Shown here: in pieces, positions 2,871-41,489 of the stretch
How the letters are laid out: each line of letters begins with the position of its first letter
Numbering within the stretch: position 1 is the stretch's first letter
Assembly: GCA_947629235.1 (NCBI GenBank)
Contig: CANRCX010000004.1
Span: 13,191 to 77,190 of the forward strand
Direction: 5' to 3'
Source: an uncultured Bacilli bacterium
GTDB lineage: Bacteria > Bacillota_I > Bacilli_A > RF39 > UBA660
DNA: 64,000 nt
Made by a program: the position numbers and the translations under genes
The notes under the pieces: generated by a model
The model's database searches: none
What the model was told of the DNA's origin: nothing
What the model saw: only the letters and a program-made list of their open reading frames with translations

Positions 2871-2876
2871 TAATAT

Positions 2877-7484: not shown

Positions 7485-7488
7485 AGTG

Positions 7489-10438: not shown

Positions 10439-10661
10439 AATAGATGTCAAAAAATTATTATATGAAATATGTGAAGATAAAATGGTGTATGAAGATAATA
10501 TTGATTTAGTAGAAAGTGGATTATTAGATTCTTATGCATTTATAGAACTTTTTTCTAAATTAGAAGATGAAGGTATAAGTTTGCAACCAACAAGAATTGA
10601 TAGAACAAAATTAAGAACAGTTAAAGGTATTGAAGAATTAATAAATGAATTTAAAAAATAA
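10431..10661 (+). CDS. dltC: D-alanyl carrier protein-like
   Basis: 76 aa. ESGLLDSYAFIELFSKLEDEGIS parallels DltC EEGLLDSFGTVELLL (Ser is the Ppant site). An 8-nt overlap with dltA suggests translational coupling. Confidence 0.7.
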   Translation: MNKIDVKKLLYEICEDKMVYEDNIDLVESGLLDSYAFIELFSKLEDEGISLQPTRIDRTKLRTVKGIEELINEFKK

Positions 10662-10714
10662 TTGATTTTATTTCAATAGTAATATAAAATATATTTTTAC
10701 TAGGAGGGTTTTAA

Positions 10715-11932: not shown

Positions 11933-11968
11933 TGTATTAATGTTATATCTTTTTTCATATAATTTATT

Positions 11969-12748: not shown

Positions 12749-12801
12749 TAGATTGTAATTTTACTCTAAAAACTATATAATTATTATAGTAGGTGGGTAA
12801 T

Positions 12802-13740
12802 ATGATTAAAAAGTATTATAAGAGTTTAAAATCAAACTTAAAAAAGTTACATAAGAATATATTAGTAGTTAAAAGTAAATGCAATAAAAATTATATTTTT
12901 ATATTATTTGATATGTTATATTCAACAGTTAGATATGATGTAAATGATGAAGAATATAAATTTTTTGAATTTTATAATCTTGATAAAGATAAAAGAAATA
13001 CTTACCTTACTAACTATAGACATGATAGATTACAAAAACATTTATATGATAAAAATATTACAAATATAATAAATGATAAAAATAAACTAATATTAAGATT
13101 TAAAGATATATTAAAAAGAGAAGTTTATAATATAAATGATTTAAGTTTTAAAGAATTTGAAGACCTTTCAAAAAGCAATGGAAAATTAATATGTAGAAGT
13201 GATAACAATTCATTTATTAAAACATATAAAATATTTGATGTTAAAAATTATAGAAGTCCTGCTTTTATGGCAGAAGATATAAGAAAAAATAAATTATTTA
13301 TAATTGAAAAATATTTTGAAAATAATAAAACTTTATCTGAACTTAATAATGATTTAGTAGTTATTAATGTAGTTACTCTTTATAATAAAAGAAATGCTAA
13401 TGTAATATCTTCAACAATAAAATTTAAAGATGGAAATAATATTATTAGTGGTTGTATTGATATTAAAAATAAAGTTATTTTAAGTACTTTAAAAGATGAT
13501 AAATTTAACAATTATAAAAAAATAGATAATATTAAAGTCCCATATTTTGATAAAATATTAGATCTATCATTAAAATTAGCAAATGAACTTAGTGAAATAA
13601 AAGAAATCGAATGGAGTTTCTGTATAAATGGAAAAAATATTTATTTAATGGATGCATCTTTATGGAATGACTATGTATATTCACAATTACCAGATTATAG
13701 AAAAGTAGGATTAATTAAATATTATAATAGAATAAAATAA
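12802..13740 (+). CDS. ATP-grasp (sugar-transfer-associated type)-like protein
   Basis: ATG at 12802 lies 6 nt after TAGGTGG; the track's GTG at 12793 is less likely. The N-terminal FDMLYSTVRYDVNDEEYKFFEFYNLDKDKRNTYLT and the C-terminal IEWSFCINGKNIYLMDASLW resemble the ATPgrasp_ST family layout. The match is weak. Confidence 0.35.
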   Translation: MIKKYYKSLKSNLKKLHKNILVVKSKCNKNYIFILFDMLYSTVRYDVNDEEYKFFEFYNLDKDKRNTYLTNYRHDRLQKHLYDKNITNIINDKNKLILRFKDILKREVYNINDLSFKEFEDLSKSNGKLICRSDNNSFIKTYKIFDVKNYRSPAFMAEDIRKNKLFIIEKYFENNKTLSELNNDLVVINVVTLYNKRNANVISSTIKFKDGNNIISGCIDIKNKVILSTLKDDKFNNYKKIDNIKVPYFDKILDLSLKLANELSEIKEIEWSFCINGKNIYLMDASLWNDYVYSQLPDYRKVGLIKYYNRIK

Positions 13741-13748
13741 AAATAGGG

Positions 13749-14999
13749 TTAAATCATATTTTTAAATTTTTCCCTATTTTTTATTGTTGAATTTTTTAAA
13801 AGAGATGATGCACGAAGTAGAGTAGTTTTACCAAATTTATCATTTATTTTATCAATAATATCATAGTATTCATTTGTTTTGATTGAATTATCACTATCAT
13901 TATCAAATAAACTAAGTTGTGTACATTTTTTATTTGATAGTTTAGAATAAGCAATTCCAACTTTTCTAATAGGTAAGTCTTCTATATTTTTATCATAAAT
14001 ATATTTTAATACTTCAAGTATTTTATCTTTATTATCTTCTTCTATATTTAAAGATATTGTTTCACTAAATTTTTTATAATAATCTCTTGAATATGATACG
14101 CTTAAATAAATTAATTTAGTAGTAAGATTCATACTTCTAAGTTTAGTATTTAACATATCATTCATTTCTTCAATTACTAAAAAAGCTTCATCAACTTTAT
14201 AATCTCTATTTAATATTTGACTCATACTCATTGATTTATTCTTACCTTTATTATTTAAATCTTTTATAGTAGTAAAATCTATTCCATTAGCTTTACACCA
14301 AATGTCATTTCCCATAACATTACCAAATCTTTTAATATAAAAGTCTCGTGTATAATTATTTATATCTTTAATTTTTTTAATTCCAAGATTTGATAATTTA
14401 TCTTGAAGTTTTTTACCAAGTCCCCATACTTCACTTATTGGTTCTATATTCCAAAGTTTATTTTCAATATCATCATATGTCCATTTAGCAATACAATCTT
14501 TATTATGTTTTGCTTCTATGTCCATTGCAACTTTAGCTAAAAATATATTTGGTCCAATACCTGCAGTTGAAGTAATACCTGTTCTTTTCTTTATTTCTTT
14601 CATCATCATAAGTGCAATTTCATAATCACTCATATTATAATATTTTAAATAATCTGTTATATCAATGAATACTTCATCAATAGAATATACATGTATATCT
14701 TCAATACTTACAAACTCTTTATAAATATCTAATACTTTTTTACTATATTCTTCATATAATTTCATTCTAGGTTTTGCATATATAATATTTATATTTTTAG
14801 GAAGCTCAAAAACTCTAATTCTATTTTTAACACCAATGTTTCTAAGATAGGGTGATACAGCAAGACACATGGCAGAGTTACCCCTAGTAGTATCAGCAAC
14901 TACAAGTGGTACTTTAAATGGATCAAAACCTCTTTGTACACATTCGCAAGATGCAAAAAAACTTTTTAAATCAATACTAATAATATGTCTTTCTTTCAT
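13749..14999 (-). CDS. Y-family (translesion) DNA polymerase
   Basis: IISIDLKSFFASCECV, PLVVAD and YSIDEVFIDIT are the Y-family palm motifs. 416 aa. Confidence 0.85.
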   Translation of the reverse strand: MKERHIISIDLKSFFASCECVQRGFDPFKVPLVVADTTRGNSAMCLAVSPYLRNIGVKNRIRVFELPKNINIIYAKPRMKLYEEYSKKVLDIYKEFVSIEDIHVYSIDEVFIDITDYLKYYNMSDYEIALMMMKEIKKRTGITSTAGIGPNIFLAKVAMDIEAKHNKDCIAKWTYDDIENKLWNIEPISEVWGLGKKLQDKLSNLGIKKIKDINNYTRDFYIKRFGNVMGNDIWCKANGIDFTTIKDLNNKGKNKSMSMSQILNRDYKVDEAFLVIEEMNDMLNTKLRSMNLTTKLIYLSVSYSRDYYKKFSETISLNIEEDNKDKILEVLKYIYDKNIEDLPIRKVGIAYSKLSNKKCTQLSLFDNDSDNSIKTNEYYDIIDKINDKFGKTTLLRASSLLKNSTIKNREKFKNMI

Positions 15000-21637: not shown

Positions 21638-21714
21638 GGCGATGTAGCTCAGCTGGCTAGAGCATCTGGTTCATACCCAGGAGGTCGAGGGTTCGAATCC
21701 CCCCGTCGCTACCA
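21638..21714 (+). tRNA. tRNA-Met (CAT), elongator type, CCA encoded
   Basis: Cloverleaf folded by hand: acceptor GGCGATG/CGTCGCT, D arm GCTC/GAGC, anticodon stem TCTGG/CCAGG with loop TTCATAC, T arm GAGGG-TTCGAAT-CCCCC. The 5' half is nearly identical to my recollection of B. subtilis elongator tRNA-Met. It lacks the initiator features (no 1:72 mismatch, no GGG/CCC anticodon stem). Confidence 0.9.
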
Positions 21715-22154: not shown

Positions 22155-22784
22155 TTATCTTTTTTTAATTAATTTAGATACATCATTTGAATTTTCAGTT
22201 TTAGATTGTTCTGAGTTTTCTAATAATATTAAATCATAAAAATTAATACCACATTTATCATAAATTGACTTTATTTCATCAAGTGTAATATTTTCAGTAT
22301 ACCATTCAAAATATTTTTGATAATTTTTACTATTTTTAAATAATAATAAGCGTCCAGATACAGTAAATAAATCAATAATATCATTATCATTAACATCTGT
22401 ATTTACTCTTTTGAATCCTAATCTTTCTAAATCTAATACATTATTTAAATTAGATACACTTTTATATGAGCAAGGACTTAAATTCAATTTCTTTTCTATA
22501 TAATCTGTTAAATAAGATAAAACTTTAAATCCATCTTCACGACTCATTCCATCAGGAAGCATAAATGGTTTAAATGGCCAATCAATTACACCTATATTAT
22601 TATCTGTTTTACCATACTGTTCACCAATTCTGTGATAATTAACATAGTGTAATCTATATATATTTTGATTTCCAATTTGATGATCTTCTAGTTCTGCTTC
22701 AAATTCATAATTTTTATTAGTAGTTTGAGATAAATCTGAGATTTTACTTTTTAATTTTTCTAAATTTTCTTTTAAACTCATCAT
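22155..22784 (-). CDS. hypothetical protein
   Basis: 209 aa with an AAAGGAGG RBS. No motif recognised. Confidence 0.6.
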   Translation of the reverse strand: MMSLKENLEKLKSKISDLSQTTNKNYEFEAELEDHQIGNQNIYRLHYVNYHRIGEQYGKTDNNIGVIDWPFKPFMLPDGMSREDGFKVLSYLTDYIEKKLNLSPCSYKSVSNLNNVLDLERLGFKRVNTDVNDNDIIDLFTVSGRLLLFKNSKNYQKYFEWYTENITLDEIKSIYDKCGINFYDLILLENSEQSKTENSNDVSKLIKKR

Positions 22785-22848
22785 AAAGTCCTCCTTTGCA
22801 TGTATTATTTTATCATAAAAAACTATTATTTCAATGATTTATTACATA

Positions 22849-22874
22849 TAAAAACTACTTTTAAGTAGTTCTAT
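22849..22874 (-). terminator. intrinsic terminator of the ASCH gene
   Basis: AACTACT (22853-59) pairs with AGTAGTT (22864-70) around a 4-nt loop, with T-runs on both strands. Confidence 0.55.
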
Positions 22875-22883
22875 TTTTTTAAT

Positions 22884-23225
22884 TTATAATAGTTGTATTC
22901 TAATACCTAAGACACCATATTGTTCTTGCTTTTCTTTTGTATAAAATTGTTCAAGATCTTTAATTAATTTTTCTTTTGTTATAGATTTATCAGCAAGAAG
23001 TGCAATATCAAAATCTTTTAACATATCTTCAAAATTATTATATCTTAATAAACCAATAACTTTAGCTTCAAAAAAATTATTTACTTGTGAATCATTTATA
23101 AATTTAATAGTGTCACCAAGAACTATTTTTTGTCTTTTCTCATCATATAATCTTATTTCAATTCTTTTAGTTCCATTAAGTATATAGTTATAATATTCAG
23201 GTTGTAATTTCATTTCGTATTTCAT
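22884..23225 (-). CDS. ASCH (ASC-1 homology, PUA-like) domain protein
   Basis: 113 aa. MKLQPEYYNYILNGTKRIEIRLYDEKRQKIVLGDTIKF... matches the ASCH beta-barrel start (l...y...i..G.K..E.Rl.d.kr..i..GD.i.f). Confidence 0.65.
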   Translation of the reverse strand: MKYEMKLQPEYYNYILNGTKRIEIRLYDEKRQKIVLGDTIKFINDSQVNNFFEAKVIGLLRYNNFEDMLKDFDIALLADKSITKEKLIKDLEQFYTKEKQEQYGVLGIRIQLL

Positions 23226-23341
23226 TTTATTTTCTCCTTTAAATTATTTTATCATAAATATAATATTATGGTAATATTAATTAAAGTAATATAAGTTATA
23301 ATTGTTTGTTCATCAAATTTACACAAAAATTACACAAATTA

Positions 23342-23370
23342 TTGTATACAAAAAAATTTAGTTGTATAAT
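23342..23370 (+). promoter_or_regulatory. sigma-A-type promoter of the Dlt-like operon
   Basis: TTGTAT (23342-47), a 17-nt spacer, then TATAAT (23365-70), 41 nt before the ATG. Confidence 0.5.
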
Positions 23371-23411
23371 GTTTTTAGTGTGAAAAAATTTGTTAAAAGG
23401 AAGTTATAAAA

Positions 23412-24914
23412 ATGTATAATGTAGTAGATTATTTAGAAAATACAACTAAAAAATATGGTAATAAAATAGCTATTATAGAAGAGAATAATAAAATAACTTA
23501 TAATGATTTTAACAAATATTCTAAAGTAGTAGGATCATTTATAGGAAGTATAGTATTTAATGAACCAATTATAATATTTATGGATAAGGGAATAGATGCT
23601 TTAATTTCATTTTTTGGATGTATTTATGCAGGATGCTTTTATACTCTTATAAATCCAGAGCTTCCTAGTGTTAGAATAGATCATATTAAAGATACAATTA
23701 AATCTAAAATAGTAATTACTGATGATGAAAATTATGAATTAGCAAAAACTTATTTTAGTGATTTAACTATTAAAAAAATTAGTGAATTAAAAAAAGGTAA
23801 AATAAATAGTGAAATACTTGATAAATGTTATAGAAATCATATTGATACAGATCCTTTATATGTAAATTTCACATCAGGTTCTACTGGAGTACCAAAAGGA
23901 GTGGTAATATCACATAAAAGTGTAATTGATTTTATAGATGAATTTACAAAAACATTTAAGTTTAATAAAAATGATATAATTGCAAATCAAGCTCCATTTG
24001 ATTTTGATGTTTCGGTAAAAGACATTTATTCAAGTATAAAAGTAGGAGCTACATTATTAATTGTACCTAAGAAATATTTTTCAAATCCATCTTTGCTTTT
24101 AGATTATTTGTGTGATAATAAAGTTACTACTATGACTTGGGCTGTGTCGGCACTTTGTTTAATTACAACTTTTCATGGACTTGATTATAAGGTTCCAGAA
24201 ACTGTAAATAAAATATTATTTAGTGGTGAGGTAATGCCTTTAAAACATTTAAATATATGGATGCAACATTTACCAAAAACAAAGTTTGTAAATGTATATG
24301 GACCTACTGAAATAACATGTAATTGCCTATATCATATAGTTGATAGAAAAAGAGATTATAAAGATAAATTACCAGTAGGATTTCCTTTTAAAAATGAAAG
24401 AGTATTTTTATTAAATGATAAAGACGAAATAATAAAAGACAAAGATATTGTTGGTGAAATATGTGTATCAGGAACTTGTGTAGGACTTGGATACTATAAT
24501 AATACTGAATCTACAAATAAAAGTTTTACTAAAAATCCAAATAATTCTAGTTATAGAGAAACAATATATAGAACAGGTGATTTAGGATATTATAATAACT
24601 TAGGTGAAATAATGTTTAATGGTAGAAAAGATTTTCAAATTAAATATTTGGGTCATAGAATAGAACTAGAAGAAATAGAAAAATCAATGATGGATATTGA
24701 TGAAGTAAATCGTGGATGTGTAATATTTGATGAAGAAAAATCTAAATTATATGGGTTTTATATAGGAAATATAGATAGAAAAAATTTAAGTATTAAATTA
24801 AAAGAAACTTTACCAGTATTTATGATACCAACGAAACTTATACAATTAAATGAATTTCCACTTACTAAAAATGGAAAAATTGATAGAAAAAAATTAATGG
24901 GTGATTACAAATGA
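23412..24914 (+). CDS. stand-alone amino-acid adenylation enzyme (DltA/NRPS A-domain type)
   Basis: 500 aa with FTSGSTGVPKGV, NQAPFDFDVSVKDIY, FSGE, VYGPTEITC, YRTGDLG, GRKDFQIKYLGHRIELEEIE and TKNGKIDRKKL. Confidence 0.85.
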   Translation: MYNVVDYLENTTKKYGNKIAIIEENNKITYNDFNKYSKVVGSFIGSIVFNEPIIIFMDKGIDALISFFGCIYAGCFYTLINPELPSVRIDHIKDTIKSKIVITDDENYELAKTYFSDLTIKKISELKKGKINSEILDKCYRNHIDTDPLYVNFTSGSTGVPKGVVISHKSVIDFIDEFTKTFKFNKNDIIANQAPFDFDVSVKDIYSSIKVGATLLIVPKKYFSNPSLLLDYLCDNKVTTMTWAVSALCLITTFHGLDYKVPETVNKILFSGEVMPLKHLNIWMQHLPKTKFVNVYGPTEITCNCLYHIVDRKRDYKDKLPVGFPFKNERVFLLNDKDEIIKDKDIVGEICVSGTCVGLGYYNNTESTNKSFTKNPNNSSYRETIYRTGDLGYYNNLGEIMFNGRKDFQIKYLGHRIELEEIEKSMMDIDEVNRGCVIFDEEKSKLYGFYIGNIDRKNLSIKLKETLPVFMIPTKLIQLNEFPLTKNGKIDRKKLMGDYK

Positions 24915-26080
24915 ATTATGAAGAAATAGTTAAAAAATATAAAACACCATTATTTATATATAATATTGATACTTTAATTGATAGAATAAATTATTTAAAA
25001 AGTAAACTTACAGATAAATATGATTTAGTATATGCAGTAAAAGCAAATACATTTATAGCAAAATCTATAGAAAAATATGTATCTAGATATGAAATATGTA
25101 GTAATGGAGAATTTAATATATGTAATAATCTTAATATTGCTCATAATAAAATGGTTATATCTGGTGTTAATAAAGATTATGATTCAATTGATAATATGAT
25201 TAAAAACTATGATATATTAAAATATACTATTGAATCTATTAATCAATTTAAATTATTAACTGAATTATCTAAAAAGTATAATAAACAAATACATGTATTA
25301 ATAAGACTTACAAGTAATAATCAATTTGGTGTAAGTGAAGATGATTTTAAATGTATATTAAAAAATATAGATAATAATTATTTGTTATTAGATGGTATTG
25401 AATACTTTTCTGGTACTCAAAAAACAAAATTAGAAAGAATAGAAAAAGAAATAGATTATTTAATAGAATTTACAAATAATATTGAAAATGAATTTAATAT
25501 AAACATTAATGAAATAGAATATGGAGTAGGTCTTCCTGTTTACTATTACCAAGGAGATACATTTAATGAAGATGAATTTTTAGATAAAGTTAAAACAATT
25601 TTAGATAAAATAACAAATAAAAAAGTAGTATTAGAACTTGGAAGAAGTATAGCTTCTTCTTGTGGAAGTTATTTAACAAGTGTAGTAGATATGAAAACAA
25701 GTAAATATGGAAATTATGTAATAGTAGATGGTGGGATAAATCATTTAGTATATTATGGTCAAACAATGGCTATGAAAATACCATATTATGAATTATTACC
25801 TAAAGTAAAAACAAAAGATGAAGAAACTTATAATATATGCGGTTCTCTTTGTACTATAAATGATTTTCTAGTTAAAAATATTAAAACAAGAAAGTTAAAT
25901 ATTAATGATATATTTGTATTTAAAAATACAGGTGCTTATTCAAGTACAGAAGGAATTAATTTATTTTTAAGTAGAGATTTACCTAAAATAGTATTAATAG
26001 AAAATAATAAATGTAAATTAGTTAGAAAAGATATTAAAACAAGTGATATAAATTTTCCAAATTATGATATAAAGGAGTGA
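24911..26080 (+). CDS. fold-type III PLP-dependent decarboxylase (Orn/DAP/Arg decarboxylase family)
   Basis: TPLFIYNIDTL...YAVKAN (PLP lysine), EYFSGTQ, DGGINHL, and ICGSLCTINDFL (active-site Cys). The ATGA overlap with the adenylation gene suggests translational coupling. Confidence 0.75.
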   Translation: MNYEEIVKKYKTPLFIYNIDTLIDRINYLKSKLTDKYDLVYAVKANTFIAKSIEKYVSRYEICSNGEFNICNNLNIAHNKMVISGVNKDYDSIDNMIKNYDILKYTIESINQFKLLTELSKKYNKQIHVLIRLTSNNQFGVSEDDFKCILKNIDNNYLLLDGIEYFSGTQKTKLERIEKEIDYLIEFTNNIENEFNININEIEYGVGLPVYYYQGDTFNEDEFLDKVKTILDKITNKKVVLELGRSIASSCGSYLTSVVDMKTSKYGNYVIVDGGINHLVYYGQTMAMKIPYYELLPKVKTKDEETYNICGSLCTINDFLVKNIKTRKLNINDIFVFKNTGAYSSTEGINLFLSRDLPKIVLIENNKCKLVRKDIKTSDINFPNYDIKE

Positions 26081-26087
26081 AGTAAAA

Positions 26088-26318
26088 ATGGAAAAATTAA
26101 TTGAAATATTAGAAGGATTAAATCCAGAAGTAGACTTTAAAACATGTAATGATTTAGTAGATGGAAGACACTTAGATTCTCTTAGTATATTATCACTTAT
26201 TAGTGAAATAGAAAGTGAATTTGATGTAGTAATACCAACTGTAGAAATAATACCAGAAAACTTTAATTCTGCTAAAAAAATATGGGAGCTAATAGAAAGA
26301 TTAGAAGAAGATAACTAA
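26088..26318 (+). CDS. acyl/peptidyl carrier protein
   Basis: 76 aa and acidic. It carries the GRHLDSLSILSLISEIE phosphopantetheine-attachment motif (DSL). Confidence 0.8.
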   Translation: MEKLIEILEGLNPEVDFKTCNDLVDGRHLDSLSILSLISEIESEFDVVIPTVEIIPENFNSAKKIWELIERLEEDN

Positions 26319-27880
26319 TGTCATACTTCTCATTAAAATATTTATTAGTATTTTTATTAGCTATAGTAGTTGTATATATTTTTACACCTAAAAAATTAAA
26401 AAGATTATTATTACTTCTAGCAAGTTATGCTTTATTTTTAAAAGTTAGTAAAAAGCTAGTAATATATTTATTATTATCAACACTATCTATTTATATATCT
26501 GGTTTATTATTTAAAAAAATAGATGATAAAAGAAATATAAAAATAAAAGGTGTTGATAAAGAAAAAAGAAAAGAAATTAAAGAGAAATATAAATCTAAAA
26601 AGAAAATAATTTTGATTTGCTGTATTCTTTTTAATGTGTCTTTTTTATTTATATTTAAATATTTAACTTTCTTTACTAATATAATTAATATAATATTTAG
26701 TAGTGATATAAAGGTATTAAAATTATTAGCTCCAATGGGAATATCTTTTTATACTCTAAGTGCATTATCATATTTAATTGATGTATATAATGAAAAACAA
26801 GAAGCAGAAAAAAATATAGTAAAAATAATGTTATATTTATCATTCTTTCCAACTATACTTGAAGGTCCTATACTAAAATATAGTGATGTTAAAGATGAAT
26901 TTGAAAAGAAATCAAAAGTAACATATAAAAATTTTTGTTTTGGAGTTCAACGAATTCTTTATGGACTTTTTAAAAAATTCTTAATCGCAGATAGACTTAA
27001 TATGTTTGTAAAACTTGTTTTTGATAATTATACAAATTATAATGGTTCAACAATATTATTAGGTGCATTATTCTATACAATATTACTTTATATGGAATTT
27101 TCTGGAACAATGGATGTAGTAATAGGATCAGCAGAAATTTTTGATATAAAATTACCTGAGAATTTTAAACAACCATTCTTTTCAAAAAATATATCTGAAT
27201 TTTGGTCAAGATGGCATATTACATTAGGATTATGGTTTAAAAATTATATATTTTATCCTGTATCATTATCAAAACCAGTTAAAAAATTAACAACATTTTT
27301 AAGAAATAAAATAAATGCAAGATTTTCAGTAATTGTAATGAGTGCAATATCTTTATTTGCAGTATGGTCATTAAATGGATTATGGCATGGAGCAGGATTT
27401 ACTTATATTGCATTTGGATATTATCATTTTATATTAATATTACTTGGAAATATATTTGAACCATTAATAGTAAAAATATTAAATAAATTAAAAATATCTA
27501 GACAAAATAAAGTATATAAATTTTTACAAATAATTAAGACATCATTCTTAGTAGTATTAGGTGAGTTAATATTTAGAGCTAAAGATTTAACTACCGCGAT
27601 AGGTATGTTAAAAAGTATATTTACAAACTTTAATATTACTAAAATAAATTTCTTATTAGGAATGGATAGTAAAGATTATATAGTATTAATTATATCAATT
27701 ATAATTGTATTTATAATTAGCATATTAAAAGAGAAAAATATTAATGTAAGAGAAAAAATAAGTGAAAAACATATAGTAATTAGATGGATAATTTATTATG
27801 CATTAATTCTTGGCATTATAGTATTTGGTGCTTATGGACCTGGATATGATCCAGTAGAACCAATATATGCAGATTTTTAG
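26318..27880 (+). CDS. MBOAT-family membrane O-acyltransferase (DltB/AlgI-like)
   Basis: 520 aa and polytopic. It has FWSRWHITLGLWFKNYIFYPV with the invariant MBOAT His. The start shares a base with the carrier-protein stop (TAATG). Confidence 0.85.
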   Translation: MSYFSLKYLLVFLLAIVVVYIFTPKKLKRLLLLLASYALFLKVSKKLVIYLLLSTLSIYISGLLFKKIDDKRNIKIKGVDKEKRKEIKEKYKSKKKIILICCILFNVSFLFIFKYLTFFTNIINIIFSSDIKVLKLLAPMGISFYTLSALSYLIDVYNEKQEAEKNIVKIMLYLSFFPTILEGPILKYSDVKDEFEKKSKVTYKNFCFGVQRILYGLFKKFLIADRLNMFVKLVFDNYTNYNGSTILLGALFYTILLYMEFSGTMDVVIGSAEIFDIKLPENFKQPFFSKNISEFWSRWHITLGLWFKNYIFYPVSLSKPVKKLTTFLRNKINARFSVIVMSAISLFAVWSLNGLWHGAGFTYIAFGYYHFILILLGNIFEPLIVKILNKLKISRQNKVYKFLQIIKTSFLVVLGELIFRAKDLTTAIGMLKSIFTNFNITKINFLLGMDSKDYIVLIISIIIVFIISILKEKNINVREKISEKHIVIRWIIYYALILGIIVFGAYGPGYDPVEPIYADF

Positions 27881-27888
27881 GTGAGTGT

Positions 27889-28833
27889 ATGAAAAACGTA
27901 TTAAAAAGTATAATATTTATGACAATATTATTAATTTTATATGAAATTATATCATATTCATTAATTACAAATAAAGAAAATATAGAAAAATATGGTATAA
28001 GAGTAGTATCTAATAATGCAATATTAACTGAAGAAAAAAATACTATTGATGTAGTAGCAATAGGGGATAGTTTAATTTATTCATCTATTTCTCCAATGAT
28101 AATATGGAATAATTATGGATATACTGTATTTGATCTTGCATCTGCTGCTCAAGTAATAAATGATTCATATAAAGATTTAGAGTATGCAGTTGATACACAA
28201 AATCCAAAAGTAGTTATATTTGAAGCAGATGTTTTATTTAGAAATCCTAAAAAAGTACCATGGTATTATAAATTTACAAAATTAGAAAATTATTTTTCTT
28301 TATTCAATCATCATAATAATTGGAAAATATATTTATTTAATTTTTTAAAAACTGATACAACAAATAATATATTTAAAGGATTTAAATATATAAATAAGAC
28401 TGTATCAGCAAAAGAAAAAGATTATATGAAAAAAACGGATAAAAAGACAAAAATACCAGAAAATAATATTAAATATTTTGAAGAAATGAAAAAAATATGT
28501 GATGAAAATAATATAAAATTAATTATTATGAGTTTTCCAAATATGAGAAGATGGAACTATTCAAAACATGAAGCAACTTTAGAATTATCAAAAAAATATA
28601 ATTTAGAATTTATTGATTTTAATACAGAAACAGATATATTAAATATAGATTGGAAAACTGAATCAAGAGATGGTGGTGGTCACTTAAATTATGTTGGTGC
28701 TACTAAAGCTTCTAATTATGTAGGGGAATATTTGAAAAAAAATAATCTTGTAGAAGATCATAGAAAAGATAGTAAATATAATAGTTGGAATGAAGCTTAT
28801 AAACAATATGAATATAAATTAAAAAATAATTAA
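27889..28833 (+). CDS. membrane-anchored DltD/SGNH-like protein
   Basis: N-terminal TM segment. VVAIGDSLIYSSISP is the GDS block I. The C-terminal SRDGGGHLNYVGA is the D-x-x-H block V. Its position after the MBOAT matches dltD. Confidence 0.65.
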   Translation: MKNVLKSIIFMTILLILYEIISYSLITNKENIEKYGIRVVSNNAILTEEKNTIDVVAIGDSLIYSSISPMIIWNNYGYTVFDLASAAQVINDSYKDLEYAVDTQNPKVVIFEADVLFRNPKKVPWYYKFTKLENYFSLFNHHNNWKIYLFNFLKTDTTNNIFKGFKYINKTVSAKEKDYMKKTDKKTKIPENNIKYFEEMKKICDENNIKLIIMSFPNMRRWNYSKHEATLELSKKYNLEFIDFNTETDILNIDWKTESRDGGGHLNYVGATKASNYVGEYLKKNNLVEDHRKDSKYNSWNEAYKQYEYKLKNN

Positions 28834-29175
28834 TACTGAAGATATAGCATAATCTTTATCATGAGATATAGAAACAGATATATTTTTGATTTCTATATCT
28901 TTTTTTATATCATTATGTAAAACTATATAAGGATCACTATTTTCATTATGCAATACTTCTATATCTTTAATATTATAGTCATTAATACCTTTTTTAATAG
29001 ATTTTAAAAAAGCTTCTTTACTTGCATATATTCCAGCAATAGTATCTAACTTATTTTTATTTTTAGAATTAATATATTCTATTTCATTTAAAGTAAAACA
29101 TCTATTCATAAAATTTTCATTATTAATAAGTTTTTCAAATCTTTTTATATAAACAATATCTATTCCATTTGACAT
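28819..29175 (-). CDS. acpS: holo-[acyl-carrier-protein] synthase (AcpS-type PPTase)
   Basis: 118 aa with GIDIVYIKRF, YASKEAFLKS and ISISHDKDYA. Its 3' end overlaps the convergent DltD-like gene by 15 nt. Confidence 0.8.
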   Translation of the reverse strand: MSNGIDIVYIKRFEKLINNENFMNRCFTLNEIEYINSKNKNKLDTIAGIYASKEAFLKSIKKGINDYNIKDIEVLHNENSDPYIVLHNDIKKDIEIKNISVSISHDKDYAISSVLIIF

Positions 29176-29277
29176 AATAATTCACCTGTAAAAATTATAG
29201 CATAAATTAAATATTATGTTTATTTTATTTAAAAAGTATGTTATAATATCATAACTTGATTAAAGGGGAGAATTATA

Positions 29278-30927
29278 ATGAAATTATTTGAATTTATTAA
29301 TAAAACATCTTTATATTTAAAAGAAACTGAAGAAGAGTTAATAGACTATTTAAATACTAGAATATATAATAAAAATATTTGTAGTAAAGATGAACTTAAA
29401 AGTTTAGATGAATTAATAAATAATGTTATATCTAATGTAAGTATAGGATTGAAAAGTAAAAGTAAAATTTTACATAAAATATCAGATTTATATATAATGT
29501 CAGTTAGTATGACAGATTATAATATAATTAAATCTAAGAAATTTTTTTATTATAATTCAATGGATATTATAGATTATTTAACAATATTATTAAAAGATTG
29601 TCCTAATATATTTGAAACAAATATTTTATATAAAATATTATATAAATATTTAGAAGATTATGCAGATATTAATGAATTAATAAATGTATTATATGAATAT
29701 AAAGATAAAATAGGTGAAGATAAAATAAATGAGTATGTAGATTATATAACTAAATCTTCATTTACTATTATTTGTAATAAAATATTAAAAGAATTAGATA
29801 ATGATATAATAAGTATTGATGTAATACTTAAAAACTTAGATTTATTATCTAATATTAATTTAAATTATCATTCACCAAAAAGAATACTTTTATTAAAAGA
29901 AGTAATAAATAAAATAAATATAAAAAAAGAGTTAGATTATTTTGTAGAAGAAGATGGAAATAAAATAATTAATAAAATTGATAATATATTGAAAAATATA
30001 GATAGAGATTATAATAAGAATGAAAAAATAAAACATTCTATTGAAAATGGAAATATTGATATAAGAAGAACTCAAGCATATTTTGAAAATATTAATTATC
30101 CACAAGATGGATATAAAATTGTTCAAAATGAAAAAATAATTACAATTAATAAAAATATATATAATAAAAATGCTGCTTTTTGTATAAGAAAAGATGGAGA
30201 TAATTATTTATTAAAAGTATATATAACAGATGTACCAACTTTTCTAGCTAATAATAGACAAATAGCAATGAATGCTTATAAAAAAGGTGAAAACATGTAT
30301 TTAAATGATAAAGATAAATCTTTATTAATACCAATGTTACCATTATTTTTAATAAAGAAAAATTTATCTTTAAATATGTATTATAATAAAAAAGCAATTG
30401 AATTTTCTTTTGTAATAGATAAAAATGGAAATGTAATATCTAAAAATGTAGATAAAAAGTTTTTTAAAATAGGTCATGACTTAAATATAGAAGATACAAA
30501 AAATATAATAAATAGTAATGAAGATAGTTTACTTAGATATTGTTTAAGAAATTATTATGAATTATGTAAAATAATTTCTTTGTCAAATAATTCAAATATT
30601 AATGATAATACACTAGTTAATTTGCCCTTAAAATTAGTAGATGATTGTGTATCAAAAGATTTAAATTTAGGTATTTTTAGAGATAAAAATAAATATACAA
30701 AAGAAAATACGGGTATATTATTTTCATCAACTCCATTATCAAAATATTGTTGTAATATAAATTTAACTTTATTTTTAGAAAATAATGGAATACATATATG
30801 TGATGAAAAAGATTTAATATATATAGAAGATCATATTGATGATATTATTAAACATTTAAATAATAGAGAAGAAATAAAAGATTTTGTTTCAAAAAATTAT
30901 GATTTTTGTAAAAAATATGTTATATAA
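29278..30927 (+). CDS. RNB (RNase II/R)-like protein with degenerate catalytic motif
   Basis: The central AAFCIRKDGDNYLLKVYITDVPTFL...AYKKGENMYL...IPMLPLFLIKKNLSL follows RNB motifs (DDA.s...g.y.l.VHIADV...R..S.Y....pMLP..L....SL). The Asp cluster is replaced by ITINKNIYNKNAAF. Confidence 0.5.
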   Translation: MKLFEFINKTSLYLKETEEELIDYLNTRIYNKNICSKDELKSLDELINNVISNVSIGLKSKSKILHKISDLYIMSVSMTDYNIIKSKKFFYYNSMDIIDYLTILLKDCPNIFETNILYKILYKYLEDYADINELINVLYEYKDKIGEDKINEYVDYITKSSFTIICNKILKELDNDIISIDVILKNLDLLSNINLNYHSPKRILLLKEVINKINIKKELDYFVEEDGNKIINKIDNILKNIDRDYNKNEKIKHSIENGNIDIRRTQAYFENINYPQDGYKIVQNEKIITINKNIYNKNAAFCIRKDGDNYLLKVYITDVPTFLANNRQIAMNAYKKGENMYLNDKDKSLLIPMLPLFLIKKNLSLNMYYNKKAIEFSFVIDKNGNVISKNVDKKFFKIGHDLNIEDTKNIINSNEDSLLRYCLRNYYELCKIISLSNNSNINDNTLVNLPLKLVDDCVSKDLNLGIFRDKNKYTKENTGILFSSTPLSKYCCNINLTLFLENNGIHICDEKDLIYIEDHIDDIIKHLNNREEIKDFVSKNYDFCKKYVI

Positions 30928-35823: not shown

Positions 35824-37203
35824 ATGATATTTTCTAGTATAACATTTATATATTATTTTTTACCAATTTTATTACTAATATATTTTATAGTATCAAGTAA
35901 ATACAAAAATCTAGTATTACTATTTTTTAGTTTATTATTTTATTTTTTAGGAGAGCCTAAATATATAATAATATTAATACTATCTTGTATTATTAATTAT
36001 TATATAAGTAAACTAATAGAAAAAAGAAAACACAAAAAATTATATTTAATTATCGGACTTACTTATAACATATTACAATTATTAATATTTAAATATACTG
36101 ATTTTTTCATATCAAATATAAATACAATATTTAAAACAAATTTTAGTTATTTATATTTAGTAATGCCTATAGGAATAAGTTTTTTTACATTTCAAGCAAT
36201 TAGTTATATAGTAGATGTGTATAATAAAAAACATAAAAGTGCAGATACTTTAATTACATTTATGACTTATTTATGCTTATTTCCACAGTTGATTGCAGGA
36301 CCAATAGTAAGATATAGTAATGTAGAAAAAGAATTAAAAAGTAGAACTCATACATTTGATAAAACAAGTGAAGGAATTAAAAGATTTATAATAGGTTTAT
36401 CTAAAAAAGTATTACTTGCTAATGTATTAGGTGAATTTTCAAAATCAATAATTACTGAAACAGTAGTATCTTCTTGGTTAAAACCAATTAGTTTTACACT
36501 ACAAATATATTTTGATTTTAGTGGATACTCAGATATGGCAATTGGACTTGGATTAATATTTGGATTTAGATTCTTAGAAAACTTTAATTACCCATTAATA
36601 GCATCTTCAATCACAGATTTTTGGAGAAGATGGCATATATCACTATCATCTTGGTTTAGAGATTATGTATATATACCATTAGGAGGAAATAGAGTAAGTA
36701 AATTAAAATGGATAAGAAATATATTTATAGTATGGTTTTTAACAGGATTTTGGCATGGAGATAGTTGGAATTTTATAATATGGGGACTTTATTTTGGAGT
36801 ATTACTAATAATTGAAAAATTATTCTTAGGTAAACATTTAGAAAAAACTAAAATATTCAAATATATTTACACAAGTATTATAGTTATAATTAGTTTTCTA
36901 ATATTTAATTCAAATAGTGTAAGTGAAATATTTATAAGTTTAAAAAATATGTTTTTCCTAAATAATATTCCATTTATTAATAATGAAACAATATATTATT
37001 TAAAAAGTTATTTAATCATATTTATAATATCTATATTTTCAGCAACACCATTACTTAAAAACATAATAAAGAAACTTTCAAATACTAAATTTAAAAACAT
37101 TATAAATATTTTAGAAGTAATAACATTAATAACTTTACTTACTATAACTACTGCATTTTTAATAGATGAATCATTTAATCCATTTTTATATTTTATATTT
37201 TAA
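35824..37203 (+). CDS. MBOAT-family membrane O-acyltransferase (AlgI/DltB-like)
   Basis: 459 aa and polytopic, with FWRRWHISLSSWFRDYVYIPLGGNR and WHG. Confidence 0.85.
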   Translation: MIFSSITFIYYFLPILLLIYFIVSSKYKNLVLLFFSLLFYFLGEPKYIIILILSCIINYYISKLIEKRKHKKLYLIIGLTYNILQLLIFKYTDFFISNINTIFKTNFSYLYLVMPIGISFFTFQAISYIVDVYNKKHKSADTLITFMTYLCLFPQLIAGPIVRYSNVEKELKSRTHTFDKTSEGIKRFIIGLSKKVLLANVLGEFSKSIITETVVSSWLKPISFTLQIYFDFSGYSDMAIGLGLIFGFRFLENFNYPLIASSITDFWRRWHISLSSWFRDYVYIPLGGNRVSKLKWIRNIFIVWFLTGFWHGDSWNFIIWGLYFGVLLIIEKLFLGKHLEKTKIFKYIYTSIIVIISFLIFNSNSVSEIFISLKNMFFLNNIPFINNETIYYLKSYLIIFIISIFSATPLLKNIIKKLSNTKFKNIINILEVITLITLLTITTAFLIDESFNPFLYFIF

Positions 37204-37212: not shown

Positions 37213-38277
37213 ATGAAAAATAAAATTATAACAATTATATTTATAATTTATATATTTACTTTTTCAATACTTGGAATAGTTTTAAAAGATGAACTTATTA
37301 GTAAAAGTGAAAGAAGAAAATTAAAAACATTTCCAGAATTTACTTTTACAAGTGAATATATTACTAATTTAGATAAATACTTTTTAGATCATTTTCCATA
37401 TAGAGATAATTTTAGAAGTTTAAAAGCAAATTTAAATTATAAAATATTTAGAAAATTAGATAATAATAGTATTTATTTAAAAGATAATTATATATTTAAA
37501 TCAAACTATCCAACAAACATGGATTCAATAAAATATTTTATAGATAAAACAAATGAAGTAAAAGATAAATTTAGTGAAAATAATAATGTTTATATGTTAA
37601 TTATTCCTGATAAAAATTATTATTTAAAAGATAAAGATTTCTTACAAATAGATTATGATTATATTTATAATGAAATAAATAAATTAAATATTAATAACAT
37701 TGATATTAGAAATATAATGAATTTAAATGATTATTATGAAACAGATACCCATTGGAAACAAGAAAATTTAGATAAAGTAGTAAAAGAAATTACAAATAAA
37801 ATGAATTTATCTTATGAAAATATTAATTATAAAAAGAATACTTTTAATAATTTTTATGGTGTTTATTATGGAGAGTCAGCAATTAATAGAAGTCCTGAGA
37901 GTCTTACATATTTAACTAATGAAACTATTGATAATTCAAATGTATATTATTTAGAAAATGATACTTTAAATAAAGTTTATAACAAAGATAAATTAAATAA
38001 TTTAGATAGTTATGATGTTTATTTAGATGGCGCTAGTGCTTATATTGAAATATATAATGAAAATGCAAGTAGTGATAGAGAACTTATAATATTTAGAGAT
38101 TCATTTGGAAGTAGTTTAACACCACTTCTAATTAATTATTATAAAAAGATTACTATTATTGATAATAGATATATAAATAGTGATAATTATTTAAATTATG
38201 TTAATTTTACTAATCAAGATATATTATTTTTATATAGTACACTTATAGTAAATAATAGTTATACATTAAAAGGATAG
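37213..38277 (+). CDS. DHHW-family (AlgX/AlgJ-like SGNH) protein
   Basis: N-terminal TM segment, YYETDTHWKQEN (the D-x-H-W motif, here DTHW) and FRDSFGSSL. It lies directly after the MBOAT gene. Confidence 0.65.
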   Translation: MKNKIITIIFIIYIFTFSILGIVLKDELISKSERRKLKTFPEFTFTSEYITNLDKYFLDHFPYRDNFRSLKANLNYKIFRKLDNNSIYLKDNYIFKSNYPTNMDSIKYFIDKTNEVKDKFSENNNVYMLIIPDKNYYLKDKDFLQIDYDYIYNEINKLNINNIDIRNIMNLNDYYETDTHWKQENLDKVVKEITNKMNLSYENINYKKNTFNNFYGVYYGESAINRSPESLTYLTNETIDNSNVYYLENDTLNKVYNKDKLNNLDSYDVYLDGASAYIEIYNENASSDRELIIFRDSFGSSLTPLLINYYKKITIIDNRYINSDNYLNYVNFTNQDILFLYSTLIVNNSYTLKG

Positions 38278-39623: not shown

Positions 39624-41489
39624 ATGGATATCGATTATTTAAAGAAATTAAAATCAGAGATTAGCAAATTAAGTGATGAAGAATTAAAGAAAAGAGATTT
39701 ATATTTAAAGAAATTAGCATCAGGTGAATTACAAGGTCCACCTGTAGGATATATGAGTATAGATAAGCCATGGTTAAAATATTATGATGATAGTAGTATT
39801 ATGTTAGATTTTAAACCTATGTCTATTTATGACTTAATGCATGAATCAAATATAGGCCATGAAAATGATACAGTTATTAATTATTTTGGTAAAAAAGTTA
39901 CTTATAAAGAATTAGAAAAAAATATTGATATAGTAGCTAAAGCTTTATTAGAATTAGGTGTACAAAAAGGTGATATAGTTATGATGAATTTACCTAATAT
40001 TCCAGAAGCTGAATATGTATTTTATGCAGTAAATAAAATCGGAGCTATATTAGAACCAATTGACCCTAGAACTAATGAAGAAAATATTTTAAAAGATGTA
40101 AAAGATTCTAACGCAAAATTATTTATAAGTTTAAATATAATGAATCCAAAATTAGCAAAAGTTGAAGATGTAAAAATTGTTCCAGTATCACCATATAATT
40201 CATTACCTTTTATAATGAAAAAAATTGCTAGTTTAAAAGAAAAAAAAGGTATTGTTAATTTAGATAATCAATTAAGTTGGGATGAATTTATTAAATTAGG
40301 TAAAAATTCAAATAAAACAGTTGAGAGTGTTTTTGAACCAAATGAAACAGCAATAATAATACATACTGGTGGATCAACTGGAGTACCAAAAGGTGTTAAA
40401 TTAACAAATGAAAATTTTAATGGATTAATTTATCAATTAATGAATAATAAAATGAATTTTAGAAGAGGTAGTACTTTCTTAAATATTTTACCACCTTTTA
40501 TAGCATTAGGATTAGATAATGCTATGCATTTAGCAGCTTGCTTGGGTATTGAATCTATATTGATTCCTAGTTTTGAACCAGAAGATATACCAAAACTTGT
40601 AGATAAACATAAACCAAATGTACTTCTTTGTGGACCAATTCATTGTTTAACAATGATGAATTCAGATATAATGAAAAATAAAGATTTATCTTATTTAGAA
40701 ATATTATGTTCAGGTGGAGATAAAATGCCAAGAGAAGATCAAGAAGCATTTCAAACATTTTTAAAAGATCACAATGCAAAAGCAAATACTTGGCTTGGAT
40801 ATGGTGCTACAGAAACAAGTGCTGGAAGTTCATGTATGACAGATGAATGCTTTAGATATGAATCAGTTGGAGTACCATATTTAAAAAATGTTTTTGCAGT
40901 TTATGATACAGATACTAATGAAGAAGTATATGGACCTGATAAAATAGGAGAATTAAGAATTAATGCACCAACTTTAATGCAAGGATATTTTGGAGTAGGA
41001 GAAGAAGAAACAAATAAAGTTTTATATACAGATGAAAATGGTACTAGATGGTATTTAACAGGAGATTTATCTCATTTTGATAAAGATGGACTTGTATATA
41101 TTGATGGTAGAATAAAAAGAATTATTACTCGTAGAGGATTTAAAATATATCCTTTATATGTAGAAGAATTAATAATGAGACATCCTGCTATTAAACAATG
41201 TGCAGTTGTAGGTGTTGAAGATCCAAAAGAAATAAATATTCCAGTTGCTAATATTGTATTAAAAGATGAATATAAAGATAATGAACAAATAAAAGAAGAA
41301 GTTATAAATTATATAAATGATATAATTGAGAAGAATTTACCTGAATATTCAATGATGGCAGGATTTAATTTTTTAGATGAAATGCCACTAACACCTATTG
41401 GAAAATTAGACTTTAAAGCTTTAGAAAAAATGGGTATTATTTCTTCTAAAGAAAAACAAATGCAAAAGAGATTTGATATTTTGAAATAA
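39624..41489 (+). CDS. AMP-forming acyl-CoA synthetase/ligase family protein
   Basis: 621 aa with IIHTGGSTGVPKGV, GYGATE and TGD...DGRIKR. The N-terminal extension contains KPWLKYY. It is a paralog of 49700..51436. Confidence 0.75.
   Translation: MDIDYLKKLKSEISKLSDEELKKRDLYLKKLASGELQGPPVGYMSIDKPWLKYYDDSSIMLDFKPMSIYDLMHESNIGHENDTVINYFGKKVTYKELEKNIDIVAKALLELGVQKGDIVMMNLPNIPEAEYVFYAVNKIGAILEPIDPRTNEENILKDVKDSNAKLFISLNIMNPKLAKVEDVKIVPVSPYNSLPFIMKKIASLKEKKGIVNLDNQLSWDEFIKLGKNSNKTVESVFEPNETAIIIHTGGSTGVPKGVKLTNENFNGLIYQLMNNKMNFRRGSTFLNILPPFIALGLDNAMHLAACLGIESILIPSFEPEDIPKLVDKHKPNVLLCGPIHCLTMMNSDIMKNKDLSYLEILCSGGDKMPREDQEAFQTFLKDHNAKANTWLGYGATETSAGSSCMTDECFRYESVGVPYLKNVFAVYDTDTNEEVYGPDKIGELRINAPTLMQGYFGVGEEETNKVLYTDENGTRWYLTGDLSHFDKDGLVYIDGRIKRIITRRGFKIYPLYVEELIMRHPAIKQCAVVGVEDPKEINIPVANIVLKDEYKDNEQIKEEVINYINDIIEKNLPEYSMMAGFNFLDEMPLTPIGKLDFKALEKMGIISSKEKQMQKRFDILK

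Follow-up and report, generated by a model that had tools for sequence, protein, structure and literature searches.

What does a pyridoxal-phosphate (PLP) decarboxylase do between the adenylase and the carrier protein of an operon that otherwise resembles the Dlt system? The question is raised by an uncultured Bacilli bacterium (assembly GCA_947629235.1), in a stretch of 64,000 nucleotides of contig CANRCX010000004.1 (positions 13,191 to 77,190) that we call the window. Five co-directional genes, here g1 to g5, encode a stand-alone adenylase, a fold-type III PLP decarboxylase, a small carrier protein, a membrane acyltransferase of the MBOAT family and a membrane-anchored SGNH-fold protein; an acpS gene converges on them (Table 1). 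A first-pass annotation had proposed a Dlt-style, carrier-dependent MBOAT machine re-tooled for a substrate other than D-alanine, in which the decarboxylase supplies or edits the transferred amino acid.

Our analysis supports the first of these proposals and, within the second, favours editing over supply. The operon very probably encodes a carrier-fed MBOAT-SGNH system for envelope acylation, and decarboxylation probably occurs on the carrier. The full model, in which such a system decorates an extracytoplasmic polymer with an omega-aminoacyl group made on the carrier, has in our judgement a slightly better than even chance of being correct. That the transferred group is beta-alanyl is a tentative assignment.

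A conserved core of adenylase, carrier and decarboxylase

We compared 81 non-redundant related loci. All of them have the genes in the order g1-g2-g3-g4-g5 and on one strand. The complete five-gene set is present in 71; a contig end cuts the operon in eight others, and two are real exceptions. The arrangement is thus conserved far beyond chance. The first-pass annotation had left it to a neighbourhood survey whether the decarboxylase is fixed between adenylase and carrier, and among the close relatives it always is. Outside the five genes, only acpS recurs as a neighbour of the operon: it occurs in 41 of the 81 loci and in 39 is convergent with g5, abutting or overlapping it. Other flanking families are lineage-specific (two-component system and ABC transporter genes in 14–16 loci, then SDR, GH43, SulP and PGM).

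The g2 family is large, with 4,538 matches at E ≤ 1e-10 and more than 120 clusters at 61–80% identity. A scan of one genome per species found a g2 relative in at least 151 genomes. The best 80 of these 151 are uncultured gut or rumen metagenome-assembled genomes (MAGs) of Bacilli ('Tenericutes'/RF39-like, Ca. Coprovivens), Erysipelotrichaceae, Lachnospiraceae and Oscillospiraceae, and the named family members that we sampled are all MAGs. The closest relative, a rabbit-gut Bacilli MAG (L009), is ~96% identical to the window.

In an exhaustive search, g2 relatives graded continuously to 31% identity; 255 clusters fell below 1e-30. We sampled seven distant loci with 31–41% identity to g2. A carrier of ~75–82 aa is encoded beside the decarboxylase in all seven and an adenylase (AMP-binding) gene is adjacent in six, in variable order. 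An MBOAT gene follows the triad in L085, L086 and L092, and probably in L090, where the open reading frame (ORF) is unannotated and truncated by the contig end. Because the distant loci keep the triad while the other partners vary, we regard adenylase, carrier and decarboxylase as the conserved core.

Other partners also occur. In L088 the partner of the triad is a DHHW/AlgX-type protein. L089, from a termite gut, carries genes for a thioesterase, adenylase, decarboxylase, carrier and Rce1-like membrane protein (4735–9266). L091 is natural-product-like, with radical SAM, PALP enzyme, methyltransferase, decarboxylase, carrier, NAD-synthase-like, AMP-ligase and KAS III genes (916–12889).

We wondered whether g2 is indeed a decarboxylase and, if so, of which kind. 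Both decarboxylase domains of Pfam are recognised above cut-off (Orn_Arg_deC_N 49.9 bits, Orn_DAP_Arg_deC 52.4 bits). The family conserves the PLP lysine Lys44 (AVKAN), E242-x-G-R245, D273-G-G, Cys314, G341-A-Y343 and the C-terminal beta-sheet domain. Because the PLP-binding and catalytic residues are invariant, g2 is predicted, on these residues, to be very probably active. Public records call family members 'hypothetical', 'alanine racemase' or 'diaminopimelate decarboxylase', and automatic pipelines give g2 the last of these names. The lysA equivalog model is indeed its best NCBIfam match by score, at 178.9 bits versus a cut-off of 297.9. LysA binds the distal end of diaminopimelate (DAP) through two elements, 'CE(S/T)xD' and 'R-P...Y'. 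Both are replaced in g2: 'iCEtgD' of LysA (2p3e) reads 'LCTinD', with an 'LCT' common to BtrK and 6knh, and 'ndliRPs..Y' reads 'nhlvYYGq'. We therefore rejected the identification of g2 as LysA, since its score lies below the lysA cut-off and the LysA signature residues are replaced.

In a single-sequence search of the PDB, BtrK came out on top (phmmer E 1.5e-26, 96.7 bits, versus 90.9 bits for LysA), and a search with the family profile gave 135 bits for 6knh, 129.6 for BtrK and 125.7 for LysA. The closest solved relatives of g2, BtrK and 6knh, act on conjugated amino acids. The 6knh structure we take to be SbnH, a decarboxylase acting on a citryl-diaminopropionate conjugate. BtrK is the decarboxylase of L-glutamyl-[BtrI acyl carrier protein (ACP)] (PMC11350588). 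Because the scores against BtrK and SbnH exceed those against LysA only marginally, g2 appears to form an independent clade and not to be a BtrK orthologue. We predict that this carrier-linked clade alpha-decarboxylates an aminoacyl-S-carrier.

Could g2 instead be a racemase or epimerase of the same fold, giving a D-amino acid, free or carrier-bound, to a D-specific DltA-like enzyme? The first-pass annotation had allowed for a racemase-like activity, DltA enzymes are D-specific, some public records name family members 'alanine racemase', and g2 has a weak cross-match to Ala_racemase_N (E 4e-4). However, that match is below the gathering score whereas both decarboxylase domains are above theirs, and g2 keeps the catalytic set of a decarboxylase, among it the active-site Cys, and the C-terminal beta-sheet domain. 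We found no alanine-racemase catalytic-Tyr context in g2, and a racemase would leave Lys239 of the adenylase (below) unexplained. This option thus gained no specific support, and we consider it very improbable.

The adenylase g1 matches AMP-binding with 199.7 bits. We extracted its specificity code by anchoring the code positions on the A4/A5 motifs, with unverified reference sequences of GrsA and B. subtilis DltA. The code of g1 is DVKTLSVCNK versus DLMTMCTVAK in this DltA reference: seven of the ten positions differ, and in g1 DltA Cys301 is replaced by Ser and Met239 by Lys. Across 81 orthologues the code reads D-V-K-[TIV]-[LIMF]-S-[VLI]-C-N-K, with D199, V200, K203, S271, C303 and N304 invariant. 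The pocket residues are of medium size (T, L, S, V, C) and the pocket looks shallow, which would argue against a long substrate such as DAP. Meso-DAP had been offered as an example of what g2 might act on; with the LysA elements absent from g2, its lysA score below cut-off and this pocket in g1, the example is unlikely.

Lys203 of g1 (codon 24018–24020) occupies Stachelhaus position 239 and is found in 81 of 81 orthologues. A Lys at this position is also present in all six distant adenylases that adjoin a decarboxylase, despite otherwise divergent codes (DAKNSVLGVK, DAKSIVTGVK, DVKTMSLCNK, DIKILSLCNK, DVKILSLCNK, DKKDIGTGTK). It is absent from a second adenylase of the window, DltA2 (DLATYCASAK), which has no decarboxylase, from the B. 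subtilis DltA reference and from the non-adjacent ligase of L091; solved adenylation (A) domains among the alignments listed, where DltA does not figure, have L, W, L or A. A covarying, cationic Lys239 is expected if the substrate of the adenylase bears the carboxylate that is later removed, and it favours editing on the carrier over supply of a free amine. We predict that g1 loads a dicarboxylic amino acid onto g3.

The alternative is that g2 decarboxylates a free amino acid upstream of g1 (Asp to beta-alanine, Glu to gamma-aminobutyrate (GABA) or meso-DAP to Lys) and that the product is loaded and exported in Dlt fashion. Invariant Lys239 suits an anionic substrate and would repel beta-alanine, GABA or the side-chain amine of Lys. 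Supply also fits poorly with the loss of LysA-specific residues from g2, with a carrier gene that adjoins the decarboxylase even in all seven distant relatives, and with the amine-binding Asp that g1 keeps and that dedicated beta-alanine A domains shift. On the other hand, the fold-III family consists mostly of decarboxylases of free substrates, g2 resembles LysA and BtrK to about the same degree, and gene adjacency alone cannot tell supply from editing. We consider supply unlikely. The amine-binding Asp itself, in the FDFDVS motif, had been taken as the mark of an alpha-amino substrate. It does not discriminate, because in VinN-type enzymes of the ANL family the conserved A-domain Asp binds a beta-amino group (PMC11284099).

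The third member of the core, g3, agrees with DltC in its small size and conserved D-S-L serine. From its scores on the DltC models, 29 and 17.8 bits (cut-offs 68 and 52), it appears to be a generic carrier rather than a DltC equivalog; the AmcB ACP model gives 32.8 bits. Profile searches bore out the AMP-binding, Orn/DAP/Arg decarboxylase, MBOAT and ACPS assignments of the first-pass annotation; the PP-binding match of g3 is weak, at 19.4 bits just below the cut-off of 20.8. The phosphopantetheine site is predicted from the conserved D-S-L to be Ser31 (codon 26178–26180). The D-S-L serine is conserved together with a 'P-x-N-F-N-S' signature in 78 g3 orthologues; both recur in the carriers of L085–L087, L089, L090 and L092, not in that of L091. 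The acpS product scores 52.4 bits on ACPS and is above cut-off on TIGR00556 (93.1 bits) and TIGR00516 (80.5 bits). We predict that it primes g3.

Finally, the operon might be an ordinary dlt operon with an unrelated housekeeping lysA inside. DltA is among the best NCBIfam families of g1, DltB is the sole NCBIfam match of g4, and pipelines call g2 a diaminopimelate decarboxylase. Yet none of g1–g5 passes the cut-off of any NCBIfam model, every Dlt and lysA model remaining under its curated threshold; g1 reaches 301.5 bits on NF003417 (cut-off 476) and 287 bits on TIGR01734 (cut-off 559.85), and is not a DltA equivalog. DltA Cys301 and Met239 are substituted in g1, neither DltX nor DltD is encoded at the operon, and g2, without LysA signature residues, keeps its position in all 81 loci across several orders. 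A better DltA/DltC candidate also lies elsewhere in the window. DltA2 (9035–10438, +, 467 aa) scores 410 bits on NF003417 and 398 bits on TIGR01734, keeps 'FCGE' and retains DltA Cys301, and a gene for a 76-aa DltC-like carrier (10431–10661) overlaps it by 8 nt. Because DltA2 is more DltA-like, g1 is not the best D-alanine ligase candidate of the genome. An ordinary dlt operon is thus extremely improbable.

The membrane half and the proposed pathway

We then asked how an aminoacyl group made on g3 might leave the cell. Pfam recognises g4 as an MBOAT (56.1 bits, cut-off 27), and on the DltB model TIGR04091 it reaches 146.6 bits versus a cut-off of 375. DltB structures align only to residues 134–420 (72 bits), and g4 is 34% identical (191 bits) to a second MBOAT of the window. 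An AlphaFold2 (AF2) model of g4 (pLDDT 82.3) finds its best fold match in DltB (8jem/6bug, E ~6e-12), with HHAT and PORCN also matching. Two extra helices, 451–472 and 486–505, lie beyond the DltB-like core. His300 and His357 are invariant in 32 sequences.

Of 75 g4 orthologues, 74 carry P-[IML]-Y-A-x-F at the C-terminus; single variants occur at the fourth position (V) and at the last (Y). Tyr517 never varies, and neither does Phe520 in an alignment (A3) that includes MBOAT2. This motif resembles the FXYXXF acyl-Tyr shuttle, with Pro in place of Phe at the first position. The shuttle was shown experimentally for DltX and PatA, including hand-over to the SGNH partner; Dlt has it on a separate microprotein, DltX, and in PatA/AlgI-type systems it belongs to the MBOAT itself, on two extra transmembrane (TM) helices (PMC12148441). 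The C-terminal tail of g4 is modelled with low pLDDT, consistent with a mobile arm. We found no DltX-like small ORF upstream of g1; because the Tyr shuttle motif is fused to the g4 C-terminus, no DltX should be needed.

The g5 protein has no Pfam, NCBIfam or PDB sequence match and no sequence similarity to the DHHW protein of the window. Its AF2 model (pLDDT 89.9, pTM 0.88) has an SGNH/GDSL fold and an N-terminal TM helix (2–25). Foldseek matched this model to GDSL/SGNH hydrolases (E 4e-6, TMt up to 0.73, probability 1.0), including the peptidoglycan O-acetyltransferase PatB; DltD was not among the top 50 structural matches. The residues G59-D60-S61, G77, D261, G263, H265 and N267 are invariant. 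The earlier description of g5 as DltD/SGNH-like therefore stands for the fold and falls for the family: g5 is a predicted SGNH-type extracytoplasmic partner with a candidate catalytic Ser and His, not a member of the DltD family. The two membrane proteins, judged by sequence and by model, are of the PatA/AlgI-type shuttle-motif MBOAT-SGNH class and not a DltB/DltD pair, a point that had escaped the first-pass annotation.

Taken together, these results suggest the following pathway. AcpS would turn the carrier g3 into its holo form. The adenylase g1 would activate a dicarboxylic amino acid and thioesterify it to g3 via the side-chain carboxyl, Lys203 holding the free alpha-carboxylate and Asp199 the amine; Asp, through its beta-carboxyl, is the most likely substrate and Glu, through its gamma-carboxyl, the second. 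Like BtrK, VinO, FlvO and CtaF, the decarboxylase g2 would then strip the alpha-carboxylate while the amino acid is tethered, yielding beta-alanyl-S-carrier (or gamma-aminobutyryl-S-carrier). Next, g4 would move the acyl group across the membrane onto its own Tyr517. Ser61 of g5 would accept it and esterify a hydroxyl of a wall or surface polymer, adding a positive charge as D-alanylation does. We favour Asp over Glu because the ANL precedents that keep the amine-binding Asp, FlvN and VinN, are beta-linked Asp/3-methyl-Asp enzymes only, and because no second, N-protecting ligase is present. We also count for Asp that a GABA thioester or ester is prone to lactamisation.

Several observations weigh against this pathway. 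The margin of g2 over LysA structures is only marginal, with the single sequence and with the profile. Two loci depart from the full gene set: g5 does not adjoin the other genes in L073, and L084 has different genes in place of both g4 and g5. BtrJ and probably CtaD, among the precedents, are ATP-grasp ligases and not ANL enzymes. The reference sequences behind the g1 code are unverified, though the motifs anchor it unambiguously. Some A domains with Lys239, as in the surfactin Glu code, activate the alpha-carboxyl of Glu; the residue thus shows that the substrate is anionic and not which carboxyl is activated. As to the acceptor, no genes for lipoteichoic acid (LTA), wall teichoic acid (WTA) or glycosyltransferases are consistently linked to the operon among its flanks.

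This last point also speaks for a different destination, in which the triad makes the same omega-aminoacyl-S-carrier and the MBOAT-SGNH pair targets not a wall polymer but, for example, a protein, a membrane glycolipid, or a polysaccharide that is secreted or forms a capsule. Distant triads are coupled to other modules (the thioesterase and Rce1-like protein of L089, the natural-product-like cluster of L091). The known MBOAT-SGNH systems act on alginate, cellulose and peptidoglycan besides LTA; however, the characterised bacterial pairs all target extracytoplasmic glycopolymers (PMC12148441). The organism, moreover, is walled, with RsmH, a PASTA-containing penicillin-binding protein (PBP) and MurG encoded at 46–52 kb of the window. 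A non-wall acceptor is improbable, somewhat more so than the supply of a free amino acid, and would be a variant of the pathway rather than a true alternative to it.

Operon layout and neighbouring genes

The ORF check confirmed the six ORFs that the first-pass annotation had delimited, with their overlaps and gaps, the convergent acpS and the quoted motifs. The g1/g2 junction is an ATGA overlap and the g3/g4 junction a TAATG overlap, the remaining gaps are 7 and 8 nt, and acpS and g5 overlap tail-to-tail by 15 nt. The translations contain FDFDVS, YAVKAN, CGSLCTINDF, LDSLS, FWSRWHITLGLWF (g4) and GDS...DGGGHLN.

Table 1. Features of the operon region (positions in the window).
Feature	Positions	Strand	Basis
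Candidate -35/-10 hexamers, TTGTAT-17-TATAAT	23342-23370 (TATAAT 23365-23370)	+	sequence match, unverified
g1, stand-alone DltA-like adenylase, 500 aa	23412-24914	+	AMP-binding hidden Markov model (HMM)
g2, fold-type III PLP decarboxylase, 389 aa	24911-26080	+	Orn_Arg_deC_N and Orn_DAP_Arg_deC HMMs
g3, carrier protein, 76 aa	26088-26318	+	weak PP-binding match, conserved Ser31
g4, AlgI/PatA-type MBOAT, 520 aa	26318-27880	+	MBOAT HMM
g4 C-terminal acyl-shuttle motif, P515-I-Y517-A-D-F520	27860-27877	+	alignment of orthologues
g5, membrane-anchored SGNH-fold protein, 314 aa, predicted extracytoplasmic transferase	27889-28833	+	AF2 model
acpS, holo-carrier-protein synthase, 118 aa	28819-29175	-	ACPS HMM

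A single promoter had been proposed for the five genes. Its hexamers are present, yet the DNA of the region has ~21% GC and promoter-like matches are no commoner than in shuffled sequence (84 observed versus 78 ± 9 expected). The claim of one promoter is therefore unverified. A Shine-Dalgarno-like AGGAAG (23398–23403) lies 8 nt ahead of the g1 ATG. We found no intrinsic terminator-like sites within 22700–29500. No Rfam match that could name the substrate, such as a T-box, occurs 5' of g1 in the window at E ≤ 1, and at the gathering threshold the window and eight orthologous loci yield only tRNAs. In the window, the sole such match is one tRNA gene (21638–21711, +).

Immediately 5' of the operon and in the same orientation, ~0.1–6 kb ahead of g1, 14 related genomes (L062, L064, L065, L068, L071, L074–L080, L082, L084) carry genes for a histidine kinase, an OmpR-type regulator and an ABC/FtsX transporter, the last often in duplicate. 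In L009 two ABC/FtsX genes (1418–6376) stop 54 nt short of g1, and kinase or regulator genes are also found upstream in the distant loci L090 and L092. No ABC/FtsX-OmpR-kinase module precedes the operon in the window. Similar modules, which sense peptide antibiotics, control dlt in Firmicutes; the parallel is circumstantial here. At the other end of the operon, L084 carries genes for an AAA-ATPase (347 aa) and a 740-aa subtilase-like protein (10464–13722) directly after the carrier gene. The pair looks like an inserted defence-type module.

Downstream of acpS, a 549-aa protein (29278–30927, +) has a weak and partial RNB (RNase II/R) match of 56.6 bits over about half of the profile. It is far below the RNase R cut-offs and is also encoded next to the operon in L009. 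The decarboxylase relative of L085 (4931–8071) is annotated as being fused, in a protein of 1,046 aa, to surface immunoglobulin (Ig)-like and transglutaminase-core domains, a separate Ig-like and transglutaminase protein is encoded at 44248–45624 of the window, and Ig-like proteins (5179–7050 and 13424–14914) flank the operon of L092.

The window also holds a second DltA/DltC-like pair and a second MBOAT pair, both of which the first-pass annotation had missed. The DltA2/DltC2 pair is preceded by a VanW-like gene (8215–9087) and followed by genes for three proteins with no significant family assignment (10715–13740): a 405-aa protein with a HELGH motif, a 259-aa TM protein with a sub-threshold match to the polysaccharide-deacetylase family, and a 315-aa protein. 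No MBOAT or DltD adjoins this pair. The second MBOAT (35824–37203, +, 459 aa) ends in a canonical shuttle motif, F-L-Y-F-I-F, and is followed by the DHHW-family protein (37213–38277, +), with no adenylase or carrier beside them; they look like an ordinary AlgI/PatA-type O-acylation pair. That they might serve as the membrane partner of DltA2/DltC2, 25 kb away, is speculative. The window further encodes two FadD-like long-chain acyl-CoA ligases (39624–41489, +, and 49700–51436, +); the gene for one of them lies in a dcw-type cluster, with the PBP gene on one side and that for MurG on the other. Near the start of the window is a gene for a Wzy_C/O-antigen-ligase-like membrane protein (4288–5814, +).

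Significance and comparison with known systems

Does a widespread group of uncultured gut and rumen Firmicutes esterify a surface polymer with beta-alanine (or GABA), made by decarboxylating carrier-bound Asp (or Glu)? We put this forward as a possibility that we would, on balance, still doubt. If true, it would be the first non-alpha-aminoacyl, Dlt-like charge modification and the first fused-Tyr-shuttle MBOAT shown to be fed by a carrier protein rather than by acyl-CoA. On chemical grounds, such an ester should withstand base better than D-alanyl esters do. Some lineages would have the modification under a two-component system and an ABC transporter, in the way that dlt stands under antimicrobial-peptide sensors. 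In Firmicutes, D-alanylation governs how cells resist cationic antimicrobial peptides, undergo autolysis and interact with the host and its immune system. The operon suggests a chemically different surface modification in many uncultured gut commensals.

The mix of modules, a proposed decarboxylate-on-carrier step in the style of natural-product pathways joined to an MBOAT-SGNH exporter, was previously unseen. The first-pass annotation knew of no characterised pathway of this composition, and we likewise found no published system with MBOAT, decarboxylase, adenylation and carrier functions in the searchable literature, subscription journals being largely outside it; the same literature holds no beta-alanyl or aminoacyl esters with MBOAT and nothing useful on the exosortase triad. 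Non-Dlt MBOAT-SGNH pathways have been described as carrier-free because acyl-CoA serves as donor (PMC12148441), a generalisation that the operon appears to contradict. The model predicts a new surface-polymer ester that would be directly detectable by liquid chromatography-mass spectrometry or nuclear magnetic resonance. Since every part is either small and soluble or has a tractable homologue, in vitro work on the hypothesis would not require the host to be cultured. The analysis also corrects a systematic mis-annotation as 'diaminopimelate decarboxylase', 'alanine racemase' or DltA.

How does the operon compare with the systems that it resembles? It shares with DltXABCD a stand-alone ANL adenylase, a carrier of ~76 aa with a predicted phosphopantetheine site and, as predicted, MBOAT export, an acyl-Tyr shuttle, an anchored SGNH-fold transferase and AcpS priming, and some of its relatives are likewise linked to a two-component system and ABC transporter. 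In the proposed pathway it works like Dlt. Yet it falls outside the DltA, DltB and DltD families, all Dlt HMMs being below cut-off. The g1 pocket is re-lined, and the shuttle motif, instead of residing in a separate DltX, is part of the MBOAT, which has two extra helices for it. Dlt, for its part, has no counterpart to a PLP decarboxylase between adenylase and carrier.

The cytoplasmic half appears to follow the logic of BtrIJK and VinNLO without orthology to those enzymes, a precedent that the first-pass annotation had missed. BtrJ/BtrI, CtaD/CtaE and FlvN/FlvL ligate Glu or Asp via the side-chain carboxyl, and BtrK, CtaF and FlvO decarboxylate the product to GABA or beta-alanine (PMC11350588); VinN/VinL/VinO do the same with 3-methyl-aspartate, and the thioester must form before decarboxylation (PMC11284099). 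In butirosin biosynthesis, as in our proposal, tethering of a side-chain carboxyl to a small carrier precedes alpha-decarboxylation by a fold-III PLP enzyme. However, BtrJ is an ATP-grasp ligase, the product passes to an aminoglycoside via tailoring and gamma-glutamyl protection, and there is no membrane export module. VinN and FlvN are closer to what we propose for g1, as ANL adenylases with an amine-binding Asp that load Asp or 3-methyl-Asp by the beta-carboxyl onto a stand-alone ACP. Unlike the operon, the Vin, Flv and Cta routes are actinomycete or clostridial secondary-metabolite pathways that feed polyketide synthase or thiotemplate lines. An N-protecting second ligase, which the operon lacks, acts in the butirosin and macrolactam pathways. 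By score, g1 is closer to DltA, its best stand-alone PDB relative (216 bits), than to beta-aminoacyl-ACP synthetases (~166 bits).

Two further systems resemble parts of the core. An exosortase-A-associated pair, defined computationally in exopolysaccharide loci, joins an AMP-forming ligase (TIGR03098) to a fold-III PLP decarboxylase (TIGR03099). To our knowledge the function of this pair is uncharacterised. It belongs to proteobacterial PEP-CTERM contexts, unlike the operon, and g1 and g2 lie outside the two families (180.4 bits versus a cut-off of 592, and 162.5 bits versus 478). LysA has the fold and the PLP-binding residues of g2; it differs in the two DAP-binding elements, which g2 has replaced, and in the adenylase-carrier context, which for g2 is fixed.

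For the membrane half, the closest likeness is to PatA/PatB, AlgI/AlgJ/AlgX and WssH, which combine an MBOAT-fused Tyr shuttle on two TM helices with an anchored or periplasmic SGNH-type transferase, as g4 and g5 appear to do. The PatA, AlgI and WssH systems draw on acetyl-CoA and use no carrier (PMC12148441), whereas the operon brings its own adenylase, carrier, decarboxylase and phosphopantetheinyl transferase.

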